From NCBI GenBank assembly GCA_043819555.1, contig JBDREQ010000015.1, forward strand, positions 1-52,126: 52,126 bases of DNA, written 5' to 3'. Origin of the DNA: Candidatus Zixiibacteriota bacterium (lineage in GTDB: Bacteria > Zixibacteria > MSB-5A5 > GN15 > JAAZOE01). The position numbers are program-made. Below are positions 15,001 to 21,000 of the stretch, piece by piece. The number at the start of each line of letters is the position of its first letter. Position 1 is the stretch's first letter.

Positions 15001-18000
15001 GCCGGACAATTATAAGCTTATAGTGCCTTATCAATGACTGGAAATAGGAATGAGTATGGCTTCTGGCAATGATATATATATAAGGTCCATGCGATCGATT
15101 GGCTACGTAAAGAGAGAAAGCGCGACCGCGGATACATATCAACAATTGGGATTTATAAGCGGGCTTGAGATTCATCAGCAATTATTGACTGCTAAAAAAT
15201 TATTTTGCCGCTGCCCGGCCGGTTTATATCAGAACGGCGATGATTATGACGCTGAGCTGGTCCGGCATATGCGCCCGACTCTCAGCGAGCTGGGCGAATA
15301 CGACGGTACGGCGTTAATGGAATTTAAAACGCGCAAGAATATTATCTATCGTATCAAGGACGAATCGGCCTGCACTTATGATATTGACGATACTCCACCC
15401 TTTGCCATAAATCGCGAAGCGCTGGATAAGGCCATAGAAATTGCATTACTCCTCGGCACCAATATTGTCGGAGAATTGCATATCACCCGTAAACAATACC
15501 TTGACGGATCGATCCCTACCGGATTTCAGCGGACGGCCATTGTCGGCATCGAAGGCGAGATACCTTTCGGCGGGAAGAGAATTCGAATTATTCAATTAAG
15601 TCTGGAAGAAGATTCATGCCGCGAAGTGTCAGATGAGGGTCATTGGCGGACTTACACGACCGACAGGCTTGGGATGCCATTAATCGAGACCGTAACCGCG
15701 CCGGACATGAAAACCCCGGATGAAGTGGCACAGGCCGCTCATTATTTGCGGTATTTAACTCGCAGTTGTGACAGTGTCCGGACCGGAATCGGGGCCGCTC
15801 GAGAAGACGTAAATGTAAGCATAAGCGGAGGCACAAGGGTTGAGATTAAAGGAGTGGCACATATTCGCCGGATACCAGAACTGACACATAATGAAGCATT
15901 CCGACAAAAAGCGCTTCTATCTATAAAGGATGAGCTTTCATCTTTAAGTATCGTTCAAAATGAATGGAGTCCGTCATCGGTTGATTTGACTCAAAATAAT
16001 ATCATTCCGTTAAAGGGTATATTGAATGAAATTAGAAAGAAGAATTTTCAAATAATTGGAATAAATCTGCCGGGATTTTATGGTTTGTTATCATTTTTTA
16101 CTCAGCCGGGAAAAACATTTGCCGACGAGTTGAGCTGCCGATTGAAAGTAATCGCCTGCATTGAAAGACCAAATATGATTCATTCGGAAGAGATTGTGGA
16201 TCTACCCGGAAATGAAATGGTAAATAAAGAGGTATGGGATAAACTGGCAAGTCATTTCAAGGCCGATGAAAAAGATGCCCAATTGATTCTGTGGGGTAAC
16301 GCGGATGATATCAAAACGGCAATTGAGACTATTGAAGAAAGATGCCGTCTGGCTTTCAATGGAGTACCCAATGAAACAAGAAAGGCATTGCCCGATGGAA
16401 CGACTATTTTCGAACGAGTTTTACCCGGCCCGGACAGGATGTACCCCGACACCGATTCGGCTCCGATTCCAATAGAAGACGAGCATATTGAGAGCATAAA
16501 GAAGGATTTGCCTGTTTCAGTTCGAGATCGTGTACTTCAGCTACAAGGATGGAACGTCCCGGCGGATACATTCGATTATATACTGCGAAGAAACCTCGCA
16601 TGGCTGATAGAGAAAATTATCAATGATTTCAATCTTCCGCCCAAGTATATTGGGACCTTATTCGGCCATACTTTCCGCGGTATTGAAAGGAAAGTCACGC
16701 CATCCGCCGATTTTAATGATTACTCTATATACGGCTTGTTTAAGTTTATTAATGCTCAGGGATTAAAAATCGAAATAGCGGAAGCCATGCTTCCTGAACT
16801 GTACGCTCACCCCAAAATGGTTTTCGATTCTATCTTAAGCATTATCGGATATAAAAAATGCGTGCGGGAATCAATAATTGGCCTGATTCCAAATCTCATA
16901 AATAAATTTGACTCGATAAAACGAAATATATCTCCGTTTGCGAAACGTGACTGGGTGATGGGGCATCTTAGAAAGATGGCTTTGGGAAATGTAGCTCTCA
17001 ATGAAATCGCGAAGACGGTAGAAGAGGAGTGCGCGAAATGAGTGATATATTCAAAGGATATAAAGGCGCGGCTCTGGAGGCTCTGAAAAAATTCAATATG
17101 CGGGTTTGGGGAGAAGCGCTGGTTGAAACCACTCGCGGAGATTTTTCGGGAATAATTCTGCCGCGCGCGGAAAGTGATGACGATCGGCATATCGTATTGA
17201 AATTAGCGACCGGATATAATGTCGGAATTACAGTAGAAACTATAACAGCCATGGGCGAGACGGGATACAAAGAAGCGCATTATAAAATCCCCGAAAAGGA
17301 ATTCCCCTATAGCGAAGGCAAGCCAAATGTTAAACTATTCGGAACAGGCGGAACGATTGCCTCGAGGCTCGATTATCGAACCGGTGCGGTGATTCCGGCT
17401 TTCTCCCCGGGTGAATTGTATGGAGCCGTTCCGGAACTGGCAGATATTTGCAATTTGACCACCGAGAAGCTATTTGCCGTATTTAGCGAAAATATGGGGC
17501 CAAAACAATATATCGCTCTTGCCAAAGCAATAGGCAAAGAGATTGAGAACGGAATTGACGGAATTGTTATTGGCCATGGTACGGATACGATGCATCATAC
17601 CGCGGCGGCCCTGTCATATATGATACAAAATTCACCGGTTCCGATTGTTTTGGTGGGATCGCAGCGTTCATCGGACAGGCCGTCCTCGGATGCGGCTCTG
17701 AATCTGATGCATGCGGCCAAAACCGCCGGCGAATCGGATATTGCCGAAGTGGTTGTCAGTATGTTTGGGCCGACGTCGGACCAGTACGGGCTTTTGCACC
17801 GGGGAACGCGCGTTCGAAAAATGCACTCCTCTTATCGTTCGACTTTTAGGACAATCGGCGACATTCCTATCGCTACTGTCGATCGAGATAAAATTACGCC
17901 GATTCGGGATGATTATAATCGCCGGCGGAAGGACAGAAATGTCAACGTCGTGCCGGTTTTTGAAGAGCGGGTGGCGATGGTTTATTATTATCCCAACATG

Positions 18001-21000
18001 CATTCCGATATAATTGATTCTTTGGTGAATAACGGTTATCGGGGAATCATTATTGCCGGAACCGGATTGGGGCATGTCAATAAGCCGGTTTATCCAGCCA
18101 TAGAGCGGGCCACTAAAGCCGGGGTTGCGATTTATATGACAGTCCAGACGCTGTGGGGTTATGTTCATATGTTCGTTTATGACACCGGTCGCGATTTGAT
18201 GAGCAAGGGAATAATCCCGACAGAAAATATGCTCCCAGAAGTGGCATATATCAAACTCGGCTGGGCGCTGGGGCAGACTGATGATCTGGAGGAAGTCAAA
18301 AAAATAATGTTGACGCCTATTTGCGGAGATATTACTGAGCGGGAGCCGTATGATGGATATCTGATTTATCAGGGCGGAACGCCGGAAATACGAAAATTCC
18401 TGAAATCAAATATTCGATAGTTCAATAATCCAGCCCGGGTAAATTATCTAAATCGAAATGAGACGCCGGTGGTTATTGAATAATCATCAAAATTGTATAA
18501 TGGCTTATTTGAGTTGTTGTTCATATGCTCGATATTAAGCACCGGTTCGATCAAATACTCATGATTTAATTTGACAGGGCATTGAAGGCTTAAATAGAAT
18601 CGATTGACACTATCTTCACGTGGTTTATCTTCAGTTTTGACTTCCAAATATGTTCGATCAAGTCCATCGGCATCATATCGATTGGAAGTGGTCAAAAATC
18701 GTTTATTCCAATGGCCGTATCCAGTGTTTACTATTAATCCTGGTATGGCAAACGATTTAATATTGACTGAAGCGCTTTGCCCTTCCCAGACTGTCGCCCA
18801 AGGTGATAAATATCCGGTTGAAATATCCCACAAAAATCCGCCTCGATAATTTTGAAAATTCTGAATGGTATAGATCAGATTCAGGCCAGTTTTTCTGCCA
18901 AGCGAACGGGATAAACGTGGTGATAGATAAAGCACCCATAAATCGTCTTTAGTGTCGGCGATATCTTTAATCCACATAATATCATAGGGAATGGGTTCGG
19001 GCAAATCGGGGCGCGACAGCGGCCAGCCATCTCCGGTCAGGTTGGCGTCTTTATATAAATAATTGGTACGTCCGTATCCGGCCTCAAAATCAAAACTTGT
19101 CTGCATGGGGAGAACAGCATTTATTCCCATAATAAAATCAAAATCACGCTTATAATCGTTGCCGGTATTGATATAAACCGTCGAGCGAAAAGAAAGGCCG
19201 CCTCGAATATGGAAGCGCGGATTGAGTTGGAATCCGCCAATTAATTTTACCTCGCCAAAATTATTATCGACACCACTAAAATCACTATGATATTTCCGTC
19301 CGTTTAAGCTTGCCGCAAAATAGAGGGAAAATCGTGATATCTCAGATAGGGGGATATAGGTTACATTAAATCTGCCAAAAATATTGCTCAGGCCTATCGT
19401 TTCACGATAATATGTTTGCTCTCCTGATAAAGACACTTTCAGTGAGGGGAGAGGAATATAATCAACTATCGCCGAAGTTATTGAACAGGCGTCATACGTA
19501 GAACTGCTGTCCTGAAGCAGATTACTGCTTGATTTAGTACTGGCGGAAAAATCGATAGAGATTTGTGCCTGAAGAGCCGGCGAGAGAAAAGCTAAAATAA
19601 AAATTAAAGCGGAGAGGATTGAAACTATATGCCGCATACGCCACCTGCGCAGCCGTTGGCAATATTACCCAATCCAATTCCATTGCCGACTCCGAAATCT
19701 ATGCCGAATGTAAAGCCTATCCGTTGATTGGAATGGCAGCGAACATGGAATTCGCGAGCCCCAAAGGCTTCCCGATTATTCAAATAGAGCTTTGTGGAGG
19801 TATTATTACTTAAAGATTCGTTTAGCGACTGACCCAGAATGCCTGGGGCAGCCTTATTTTCAGCGTTTTTATTTTCAAAATCATCCGGAATGCCGTTGCC
19901 GTCATTATCACGATAATTATCGTTGATCCCGTCACCGTCAAAATCGATATATATTGAATTATATATTTTCATCGAGTCTTCGGCATGGGCTGAATCCGTA
20001 GAATATATAAAACTAAGCGCCGTAAATGCTAGAAGCAATAACTTCATATAAATCCCAATCCATACTATGCTTTTGCTCCGTTAATTTATCCACTGCTGGC
20101 GGTTTTGGCAATACCTGTCTTATGATGGTTCAGGGATAGATTTTTAGCCAATCCCTGAATGTACTTTAAATATGACGATCATAAACAATTGGGCGGATTG
20201 CCGCCTTTGAATATATGATTTATTAAAAAGACAGCGTCACCGATATTGACATTATTATCGCAATTGGCATCAGCCCTTTCTGCGGGATCGCTTGGAGGAC
20301 CGCCTTTGAAAATAATATTAATAATGTAAACGGCGTCGCCGACACTTATGCCATAGTCGCCGTTAGCATCACCCCGATTGTGAACGGTTATCTTTAGATT
20401 AGGCGACCATATACTTTCGGCGTCCATTTCATCCTTGACTTTTACACGGTAATTATAATTTCCGGCCATGTTCCAGGCGTGCGATTCAATTGTTTGCGTT
20501 CCCGATTCCACAGGACCAGTCCAATCAGATATATTTCCGTCGCCCCAGTCGAATTTGTACCATAAATCCTGGCCGTCAGGATCGGTGCCATTGGCGGCGA
20601 TTTCGTACGTTCCGTAGGTTATTCCGATTGACGGACCGCTTATATCCATAGGCCGGGGCGGAGTCTGATTTATAAATTGATTGTTGATTATGGAAACCGC
20701 AATTCCGAGATTACCTTCGCTTAGCCAGTTAAGCGTTACGGACAGGCTGATATTCTTGACTTCTCTTACGCCGGAGGATTGAGAAGCGACAACGTAGTTG
20801 GAAAGATTGCCGGACAGGTCACCCGGTGATGCGCCGACCACTACTTGATAACCCCCGTCAACAAAAACGGTAGGAGCGGCTTGTAAATTAAAATCATCAA
20901 AAACCCGACGACTGGCTTCGTTGTTTTTATTATAGATAAGGGAAGCATGATACACATTGTATCCGGCCGCTTGCAACGCTGCTAACGCCTCACGGGCGTA

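Follow-up and report, generated by a model that had tools for sequence, protein, structure and literature searches.

A GatDE-family amidotransferase operon in a Zixibacteria genome that also encodes glutaminyl-tRNA synthetase

Textbook archaea lack glutaminyl-tRNA synthetase (GlnRS) and obtain Gln-tRNA(Gln) through the amidotransferase GatDE alone. A gatE-gatD pair in a Zixibacteria genome that also encodes GlnRS therefore raises the question of what this enzyme does in a bacterium, and whether, as the genome-wide survey's note held, it replaces GatCAB there. The relevant sections of reviews dated 2008 to 2022 describe GatDE as an archaeal signature found in archaea only, and archaea as being without GlnRS (PMC2330236, PMC9499178, PMC8762117). 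Neither statement holds for the genomes that were searched, and the exceptions to the two are connected: of 121 genomes sampled from the phylum 79 have GatD, and 13 of 61 Thermoplasmatota genomes have a bacterial-type GlnRS. No description of the GatDE family in bacteria was found in the literature searched; bacterial GatDE is already named in databases, and this locus is one ordinary member of a large bacterial clade.

The gatE-gatD locus and its products

The window, contig C15 (52,126 nucleotides), carries gatE (15050..17041, forward strand), which encodes a kinase/amidotransferase and tRNA-binding subunit of 663 aa recognised by NCBIfam GatE equivalog scores and Pfam GatB_N, and gatD (17029..18420, forward strand), which encodes an asparaginase-type glutaminase subunit of 463 aa recognised by TIGR02153 and Pfam domains. 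The overlapping pair noted by the survey was recovered as two intact open reading frames on the same strand. The survey's gene start at 15056 is indeed an ATG, but it is the third codon of a frame that opens two codons earlier, at 15050. Translation of gatD could begin at GTG 17029 (463 aa) or at ATG 17038 (460 aa), the latter overlapping the stop codon of the co-directional gatE as a 4-nt ATGA. The operon is flanked by an MttB-family methyltransferase/corrinoid cluster and by unknown genes on the opposite strand.

When re-scored, both products exceeded the curated NCBIfam cut-offs, as the survey had reported. GatE reached 471.7 bits with NF003107 (cut-off 456, E 3.4e-141) and 382.5 bits with TIGR00134 (cut-off 319.55), and matched Pfam GatB_N at 2.8e-48; GatD reached 513.5 bits with TIGR02153 (cut-off 324, E 3.2e-154) and 508.4 bits with NF003217 (cut-off 310), and contains the Pfam domains GatD_N, Asparaginase and Asparaginase_C. 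The best solved relatives of the operon products are the GatDE enzymes of P. abyssi (1zq1) and M. thermautotrophicus (2d6f, with tRNA-Gln), with which they share the two-subunit organisation. The active-site motifs of GatD (GTGGTIAS, HGTDTM and RKMH) are identical to those of the aligned chains 1zq1_A and 2d6f_A, so that the Thr and Thr-Asp-Lys site is retained. In GatE, residues H42, E186 and E213 correspond, as counted on the alignment, to the Mg-site residues His15, Glu157 and Glu184 of M. thermautotrophicus and are invariant in 56 of 56 clade members; 128 GatE columns are invariant among these 56 sequences. The roles of the catalytic residues, including the GatD Thr nucleophile with its Thr-Lys-Asp triad and the GatE Mg ligands, are those given in the corresponding section of a review (PMC2330236).

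The AlphaFold2 model of GatE (pLDDT 88, pTM 0.87) gave the GatE chains 1zq1_C and 2d6f_D as its top Foldseek matches, and full-length GatB chains aligned with it over about 650 columns. The model is confident at residues 300-420 and 480-663 and in the C-terminal helical and tail region, and GatE is predicted to have the GatB_N cradle, the AspRS-like insertion domain, the helical domain and the YqeY-type tail of the archaeal subunit, in which the tail reads the D-loop of the tRNA. For this copy Pfam GAD reached only E 0.087 at the insertion domain, whereas 25 of 56 clade members match it, and Pfam GatB_Yqey gave no match to the tail even at E 10, compared with matches in 29 of 56 clade members; the tail thus differs from archaeal GatE in lying below Pfam detection, its sequence being too diverged.

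Both genes are intact and under strong purifying selection: in comparison with a genome of the same genus, dN/dS was 0.098/1.23 = 0.08 for gatE and 0.026/0.875 = 0.03 for gatD. GatE diverges much faster than GatD (40-63% versus 69-86% identity), mostly in its tRNA-binding C-terminal third. The operon most likely encodes a complete GatDE-family tRNA-dependent amidotransferase that is maintained by selection.

Relatives and the type-2 clade

The best 80 related loci comprised 77 bacterial metagenome-assembled genomes (69-86% identity) and 3 from Thermoplasmatota (70-71%), in line with the mixture of bacterial loci and Thermoplasmatota at about 70% described by the survey. Archaeal GatDE is the most likely ancestor of the operon, by way of a separate clade, here called type 2, whose members occur in a group of Thermoplasmatota genomes and in numerous phyla of anaerobic bacteria. 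The nearest archaeal relatives are the type-2 Thermoplasmatota loci L038, L042, L072 and L179-L189, whose GatD is 61-70% identical; together with bacterial GatD they form one clade with support of 99-100. Their host contigs are archaeal, carrying TBP, aTrm56 and pantoate kinase, and 9 of 12 type-2 Thermoplasmatota genomes share with the bacteria a bacterial-type GlnRS. These archaea differ from the present host in having A1-U72 tRNA-Gln and divergent gatE and gatD. The idea that tRNA-Gln had co-adapted in these archaea by a change to U1-A72 was considered and rejected, A1-U72 being found in 8 of 8 genes from GlnRS- or type-2-bearing genomes. In free trees the bacteria branch within the archaeal type-2 ladder (97 support), but monophyly of archaeal type 2 was not rejected by the AU test (p 0.572).

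Gene order also distinguishes the groups: gatE precedes and overlaps gatD here, gatD precedes gatE in type-1 Thermoplasmatota, and the archaeal type-2 genes are divergent. The gatE-gatD order is conserved in bacterial loci, the GatE cluster being present at 59 of the best 80. An apparent GatE-GatD fusion at L091 was discarded, since the 1164-aa frame is an open shadow frame and the real gatE ends at the gatD start. Among the best 80 loci no general neighbour was conserved beyond gatE-gatD; only glnA (glutamine synthetase) recurred, directly upstream of gatE, at 6. A search of 60 of the 77 bacterial loci found no tRNA gene beside gatED, only two unrelated tRNAs more than 4 kb away; in two archaeal genomes, tRNA-Gln genes adjoin type-2 gatE or gatD.

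Other routes to Gln-tRNA(Gln) and to Asn-tRNA(Asn)

In keeping with the survey's claim that GatCAB is absent, neither gatB nor gatA was found over cut-off in this genome, which is 97.13% complete. The only gatB matches in a six-frame search were to GatE itself (100 bits versus 314.8), and the best gatA match, at 217-233 bits versus 481.1, was to a generic amidase encoded on contig C20. GlnRS (759.4 bits, cut-off 425.8) adjoins GluRS on contig C21 and AsnRS is on contig C73, so that the operon on C15 does not, as had been stated, sit beside either synthetase. The asparagine synthetase AsnB is also present (531.6 bits, cut-off 267.1). Both tRNA-Gln genes (CUG on C20, UUG on C40) have the bacterial U1-A72 pair that the survey had reported, together with G73, and tRNA-Asn has the same U1-A72 and G73. 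Unlike the hosts of archaeal GatDE, this one is bacterial and has GlnRS, a GluRS of bacterial type and tRNA-Gln with U1-A72.

Family cut-off searches were applied to a sample of 121 genomes of the phylum, in which the 79 genomes with GatD agree with the survey's figure of at least 164 of 284 Zixibacteria with GatD_N. GatD occurred in 46 of 74 genomes with GatB and 33 of 47 without it; this independence of GatB is not the pattern of a plain substitute in the Glu-tRNA(Gln) amidotransferase role. All 47 genomes lacking GatB have GlnRS, all 23 lacking GlnRS have GatB (8 of them also with GatD), and 51 of the 121 have GatB beside GlnRS. The state seen here, GatD without GatB, was shared by 33 of the 121, every one with GlnRS, and none of the 79 genomes with GatD lacked both GlnRS and GatB. 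AsnRS was found in 119 of 121. Of 50 bacteria that carry GatD and are assigned by label to many phyla, at least 5 of them duplicates of genomes in the phylum sample, 48 have GlnRS and the remaining 2 have GatB. Unlike the archaeal enzyme, bacterial GatDE was therefore never the sole route in the 79 and 50 genomes searched.

GatDE is accordingly accessory in this cell, surplus to GlnRS and not the housekeeping route. Because GatDE is never the sole route and AsnRS is nearly universal in the sample, it is GlnRS and AsnRS that stand in for GatCAB here; GatCAB could be lost because these enzymes charge tRNA-Gln and tRNA-Asn directly. The survey had offered two alternatives, that the enzyme works on bacterial-type tRNA or is redundant with GlnRS, and by co-occurrence redundancy is the better half. 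A precedent is the GatCAB kept beside GlnRS and AsnRS in Thermus, Deinococcus and Bdellovibrio, according to a passage of PMC4206432, where a tRNA-dependent amidotransferase likewise persists despite both direct synthetases. GatCAB differs in that its subunits are unrelated or only paralogous (amidase GatA as against asparaginase GatD) and in that it supplies asparagine in those organisms; in the present genome AsnB is available, and an asparagine role is unsupported by the distribution.

Candidate roles and their bearing on glutamine decoding

There is roughly an even chance that the operon specifies a functional amidotransferase for Glu-tRNA(Gln), archaeal in descent, which gives the cell a second route or a clean-up step. 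Judged from its archaeal homologue, an alpha2-beta2 assembly, the enzyme would work as follows: GatE would bind aminoacyl-tRNA and phosphorylate the side-chain carboxyl, GatD would free ammonia from Gln or Asn, and the ammonia would pass through a tunnel and amidate the activated intermediate. The single bacterial GluRS may make some Glu-tRNA(Gln) on U1-A72 tRNA-Gln, which GatDE would most likely turn into Gln-tRNA(Gln). The analysis shows the genes and their intactness, the purifying selection, the membership of the clade and the pattern of co-occurrence; which tRNA is the substrate, what the enzyme does for the cell and where Glu-tRNA(Gln) comes from are inferred. One Thermoplasmatota genome (G176, completeness not established) has type-2 GatD as its only GatD, without GlnRS or GatB, which suggests that members of this clade can amidate Glu-tRNA(Gln) competently. 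Archaeal GatDE recognises A1-U72, as stated in a section of PMC2330236; the U1-A72 of the host tRNA-Gln weakens the notion that the enzyme works exactly like the archaeal one, not its family membership. A clean-up enzyme is not obligatory, since 14 genomes of the phylum live with GlnRS and neither GatD nor GatB.

A signature of mischarging was sought in GluRS by aligning 81 GluRS sequences, which came from 80 genomes of the 121 in the phylum sample. No alignment column separated 22 sequences from genomes without GlnRS, which must mischarge, from 13 that must not, their genomes having GlnRS but lacking an amidotransferase. An Arg in the LLKER motif, in our view a candidate for the position of Arg358 in T. 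thermophilus GluRS, was kept in all sequences compared, and the GluRS of this genome was only 46-55% identical to either group.

It is less probable, though worth weighing, that the type-2 clade gained another job compatible with GlnRS and spread for that reason as an accessory module; its substrate might be another aminoacyl-tRNA or a single isoacceptor, or it might serve a non-ribosomal use of Gln-tRNA or be a tRNA-gated glutaminase/asparaginase. The independence of GatD from GatB, its near-constant company of GlnRS without ever being the sole route, the fast evolution of GatE, above all in its C-terminal third, and the occurrence of Zixibacteria-labelled GatD at four or more separate places in the tree, suggesting repeated transfer, would all fit. 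Set against these are the invariance of every residue that catalyses the canonical three-step reaction and the lack of a conserved new neighbour or partner gene in the best 80 loci, and the archaeal tRNA-Gln neighbours and the recurrent glnA both fit the canonical role.

That bacterial GatDE amidates Asp-tRNA(Asn), in the tRNA-dependent asparagine synthesis performed by GatCAB in Thermus and Deinococcus, appears improbable. The U1-A72 pair is common to bacterial tRNA-Asn and tRNA-Gln, as is the case with G73 in this genome, and 7 phylum genomes have GatD with neither GatB nor AsnB. Archaeal GatDE, moreover, excludes tRNA-Asn through tRNA features and not the amino acid, according to a passage of PMC2330236. 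This genome nevertheless has AsnB and AsnRS, and AsnB is commoner with GatD (59/79) than without it (16/42), the opposite of the prediction. Eight phylum genomes lack GatD, GatB and AsnB alike, so that a missing AsnB does not force an amidotransferase. The insertion domain, which in modelling presented in part of the same review clashes with AspRS (PMC2330236), is kept in the predicted GatE structure and, by Pfam GAD, in the 25 clade members.

A takeover of GatCAB's job, with GatDE required for Gln-tRNA(Gln) or amide aminoacyl-tRNA supply, is very hard to sustain. The claim drew on GatDE with no GatB or GatA over cut-off here, a state matched in 33 of the 121 genomes, but all 33 have GlnRS, GatB is kept in 46 of the 79 genomes with GatD, including all 8 without GlnRS, and the near-universal AsnRS and the 48 of 50 GlnRS in the wider sample point the same way. 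A functionless leftover of past transfer can be virtually dismissed: the operon is dispensable by gene content, and genome G039 has no GatD, while G063, which has it, encodes a GluRS 78.5% identical to that of G039, but intact frames, dN/dS of 0.03-0.08, the 128 invariant columns and the prevalence of GatD in the phylum all speak for a maintained enzyme.

The bacteria and the Thermoplasmatota group share both GlnRS (61-65% identity) and type-2 GatDE (61-70%), which would point to sediment archaea and FCB-type bacteria having passed genes for glutamine decoding to each other in both directions. We tentatively consider, as a possibility well short of an even chance, that type-2 GatDE is a mobile accessory clade found in both domains only beside another route to Gln-tRNA(Gln), exchanged in both directions between archaea and FCB bacteria and acting as a safeguard. 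If so, GatDE would clear Glu-tRNA(Gln) in cells that pair GlnRS with an incompletely discriminating GluRS, and would allow a cell to survive the change between the indirect and the direct mode of glutamine coding. The finding bears on how glutamine decoding changes between these routes, on whether the first tRNA base pair truly isolates the bacterial and archaeal systems, and on the use of GatDE as an 'archaeal marker' in metagenome binning.

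The gatE-gatD gene pair

The gatE open reading frame extends over positions 15050-17041 of the window (+ strand, 663 aa) and gatD over positions 17029-18420 (+ strand, 463 aa when read from the GTG at 17029). The gatE stop codon TGA (17039-17041) forms an ATGA together with an ATG at 17038, and because this ATG and the alternative gatD start, GTG 17029, both precede the end of gatE, the overlap of the two genes noted in the genome-wide survey holds with either start. GatE scored 471.7 bits against NF003107 (cut-off 456) and 382.5 bits against TIGR00134 (cut-off 319.55), and GatD scored 513.5 bits against TIGR02153 (cut-off 324). 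Pfam matches comprised GatB_N in GatE and three domains (GatD_N, Asparaginase, and Asparaginase_C) in GatD. The closest solved relatives by sequence were the GatDE enzymes of Pyrococcus abyssi (1zq1) and Methanothermobacter thermautotrophicus (2d6f). GC content near the operon was 0.42-0.45, the same as in the remainder of the window.

The operon (gatED) stands alone, since all flanking genes, namely an MttB-family methyltransferase/corrinoid/homocysteine-methyltransferase cluster and unknown genes, are located on the opposite strand. The stretch at 10610-14333 (- strand) encodes an MttB-family methyltransferase of 485 aa without interruption and, after it, a short Met_synt_B12-like protein, a B12-binding corrinoid protein, and a member of the homocysteine S-methyltransferase family; these genes resemble a cluster for corrinoid methyl transfer and diverge from gatED. 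Among the best 80 GatD-related loci, the sole recurring operon neighbor was glnA (type I glutamine synthetase), which was found immediately upstream of gatE on the same strand in six loci (L037, L080, L087, L090, and L093, bacterial; L072, archaeal) and scored 481.6 bits in L037 and 433.6 bits in L072 (cut-off 429.15).

The gene pair is predicted to be a working one and not a relic. The GatD motifs GTGGT, HGTDT, and RKMH were identical in an alignment with both solved GatD chains. His15, Glu157, and Glu184 of M. thermautotrophicus GatE, described in a passage of PMC2330236 as magnesium ligands whose mutation kills the enzyme, aligned with H42, E186, and E213 of the window protein, and these residues were invariant across 56 aligned GatE sequences of the clade. 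An AlphaFold2 model of GatE, built on the 56-sequence clade alignment, had a mean pLDDT of 88 and a pTM of 0.87, with values of 89-97 in most ten-residue blocks of the C-terminal helical and tail region, and Foldseek ranked 1zq1_C and 2d6f_D at the top (TM on target 0.82 and 0.78). The insertion domain matched Pfam GAD only at E 0.087 (GAD was matched by 25 of the 56 clade members) and no GatB_Yqey match was found in the tail (29 of the 56 had one); both domains of the window protein appear to be too diverged for Pfam. Comparison with the same-genus genome G068 yielded dN/dS values of 0.098/1.23 for gatE and 0.026/0.875 for gatD, with dS near saturation.

Glutamine and asparagine decoding in the genome and the phylum

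Searches of the host genome (completeness 97.13%) recovered no gatB over the cut-off, GatE itself being the sole responder at 100 bits, and no gatA over the cut-off, the best match being a generic amidase (217-233 bits, cut-off 481). Contig C21 encodes GlnRS (759.4 bits) and, next to it, the only GluRS of the genome (549 bits), which is of the bacterial type; AsnRS is encoded on C73, bacterial-type AspRS on C64, and AsnB on C78. The survey's observation of GatDE in this genome was real, apart from its placement beside GlnRS and AsnRS, which is true of the genome and, as the two synthetases are on separate contigs, not of the window. Two glutamine synthetases are present, and both tRNA-Gln genes have U1-A72, G2-C71, G3-C70, and G73. 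Contig C40 (locus L007, 1432-2469, - strand) encodes a 344-aa protein that is paralogous to the catalytic core of AsnRS and lacks the anticodon-binding domain. This protein scored 188 bits with the AsnRS model and 89 bits with that of asparagine synthetase A, below every cut-off, and is possibly an AsnA-like asparagine synthetase of the archaeal type. A tRNA-SeC (UCA) is also encoded, and the organism probably uses selenocysteine.

GatD, GatB, and GlnRS were searched for in a single set of 121 genomes of the phylum (completeness of 90% or more, host genome included) and were over the cut-off in 79, 74, and 97 of them, respectively; a partial GlnRS in genome G007 was counted as present in addition to the 97. 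GatD was accompanied by both GatB and GlnRS in 38 genomes, by GatB without GlnRS in 8, and by GlnRS without GatB in 33, which is the state of the host genome. Genomes without GatD encoded both GatB and GlnRS in 13 cases, GatB without GlnRS in 15, and GlnRS without GatB in 14. Neither with GatD (0 genomes) nor without it (0 genomes) were GatB and GlnRS both missing. GlnRS was therefore present in 47/47 genomes without GatB, and GatB in 23/23 genomes without GlnRS, while the frequency of GatD was similar with GatB (46/74) and without it (33/47). As all GatB-less genomes have GlnRS and AsnRS was found in 119/121 genomes, it is GlnRS and AsnRS that compensate for GatCAB. The survey's proposal that GatDE replaces GatCAB is not supported, since none of the 79 genomes with GatD lacked both GlnRS and GatB; across the 121 genomes GatDE is an addition and never the sole route.

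A wider sample comprised 50 of the 77 bacterial GatD loci, hand-picked for spread of labelled phyla and for contig size. GlnRS was over the cut-off in 48/50 of these genomes, and the other two (G228 and G231) had GatB. At least 5 of the 50 were genomes of the phylum sample again (identical coordinates and scores), so the two samples are not fully independent, and neither are related genomes.

The reading in which GatDE serves asparagine supply predicts that AsnB should be rarer where GatD is present, and the opposite pattern was found. With asparagine synthetases counted as AsnB alone, 75/121 genomes were positive; AsnB was commoner with GatD (59/79) than without it (16/42). Eight genomes had none of GatD, GatB, and AsnB, and the host genome itself has AsnB and AsnRS.

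In the phylum sample, the complete-looking genome G084 (loci L163 and L164; GatD and GlnRS present, GatB absent) encodes two full-length bacterial GluRS (548.5 and 541.8 bits). A distinct GluRS with lower scores (464-473 bits) was found in GlnRS-less genomes of genus g9 (G011, G012, and G027) and genus g55 (G020, G025, G030, and G046; loci of both genera L111-L117 and L125). This candidate non-discriminating GluRS is only 35-39% identical to the host GluRS and differs by an 8-residue deletion and by QPR replacing KER in the anticodon-binding region.

Relatives and origin of the bacterial clade

The best 80 GatD-related loci were from 77 bacterial MAGs, with labels including Zixibacteria, Ignavibacteria, Calditrichota, Cloacimonadota, Aminicenantes, Neomarinimicrobiota, Latescibacteria, Krumholzibacteria, KSB1, Phycisphaerae, and Bacteroidota, and 3 Thermoplasmatota MAGs. 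One carrier of gatED of this clade is a MAG with the label Caldithrix abyssi (locus L073). The three Thermoplasmatota contigs are truly archaeal: they encode TATA-box-binding protein, pantoate kinase, and the archaeal tRNA Cm56 methyltransferase, and an A1-U72 tRNA-Gln gene is located on one of them. In 61 sampled Thermoplasmatota genomes, the percent identity between GatD and the window protein was bimodal, with 12 at 61-70% (type 2, the clade shared with the bacteria), one at 51%, and the others at 47% or less; 5 of the 12 had a second, distant GatD copy.

GatD trees were generated using FastTree (149 rows, excluding the partial L020 and L178, a duplicate of L038) and IQ-TREE with LG+C20 (70 rows). 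Bacterial and archaeal type-2 GatD formed one clade (support 100 and 99, respectively), which in both trees was placed inside the remaining GatD diversity, adjoining L190 of another Thermoplasmatota genome. On the parsimonious reading, the bacterial clade would be of archaeal origin with a donor near this Thermoplasmatota group, the archaeal nature of the deeper backbone being assumed because its rows are unlabelled cluster representatives. In the free trees, the bacterial rows branched from within a ladder formed by the archaeal type-2 sequences (support 97), but the AU test did not reject the alternative in which all 14 archaeal type-2 rows form a clade of their own (p 0.572); nesting of the bacterial sequences within archaeal type 2 is not established.

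Branching among the bacteria ignored the labelled phyla, with Zixibacteria-labelled rows in at least four places, which suggests repeated transfer, although several of the NCBI labels conflict with the genome-level phylum assignment. Several loci titled Ignavibacteriales, FCB group, or 'uncultured bacterium' (e.g., L023 and L026) belong to genomes placed in the window's phylum, so phylum labels in record titles are unreliable for counting transfers. P0004, a 943-aa cluster representative with a GatD-like region at 491-938 (57% identity) after about 490 N-terminal residues, may represent a gene fusion or an error in gene calling.

GlnRS in Thermoplasmatota and the proposed role of GatDE

GlnRS was over the cut-off (716-743 bits) in all three Thermoplasmatota genomes from the best 80 loci, and a bacterial-type GlnRS was present in 13/61 sampled Thermoplasmatota genomes (685-744 bits, cut-off 425.8; the loci and genomes include L208-L213, L219, L221, and L226, and G121, G127, G136, G138, G142, G162, and G170). 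It was found in 9/12 type-2 genomes versus 4/49 others, and GatD had no match in 3 of those 4. These enzymes were 61-65% identical to the host GlnRS, and the archaeal-bacterial distance was about equal to that of GatD. Genes for tRNA-Gln flank GlnRS in G127, G136 (CUG upstream and UUG downstream), G138, and G162, and adjoin type-2 gatE in G121 and type-2 gatD in G139; all have A1-U72, with G73 in three genomes and A73 in three. GlnRS was missing from three type-2 genomes, two of which have a second GatD. The third, G176, of unstated completeness, has type-2 GatD without GlnRS, a second GatD, or GatB, which suggests that, in an archaeal cell, type 2 can suffice on its own.

Passages of published accounts describe GatDE as an archaeal signature protein (PMC2330236, 2008), as exclusive to archaea (PMC8762117, 2022), and as now found only in archaea, with GlnRS absent from all archaeal species (PMC9499178, 2022). 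The GlnRS of 13/61 Thermoplasmatota genomes differs from such statements in the reviews. Full-text literature searches found no paper that links these bacterial groups to gatD/gatE or GatDE, and reviews only for GlnRS with Thermoplasmat*.

The best-supported account, with about an even chance of being right, is that the GatDE studied here is a functional and archaeal-derived enzyme that works next to GlnRS and offers a second or clean-up path to Gln-tRNA(Gln). Its substrate is putative because the discriminating state of GluRS could not be read from sequence. The locus itself is an unremarkable representative of a large bacterial clade, and the interest lies in how that clade behaves: it never provides the only route, it occurs independently of GatCAB, and it is linked to GlnRS in archaea as well as in bacteria.
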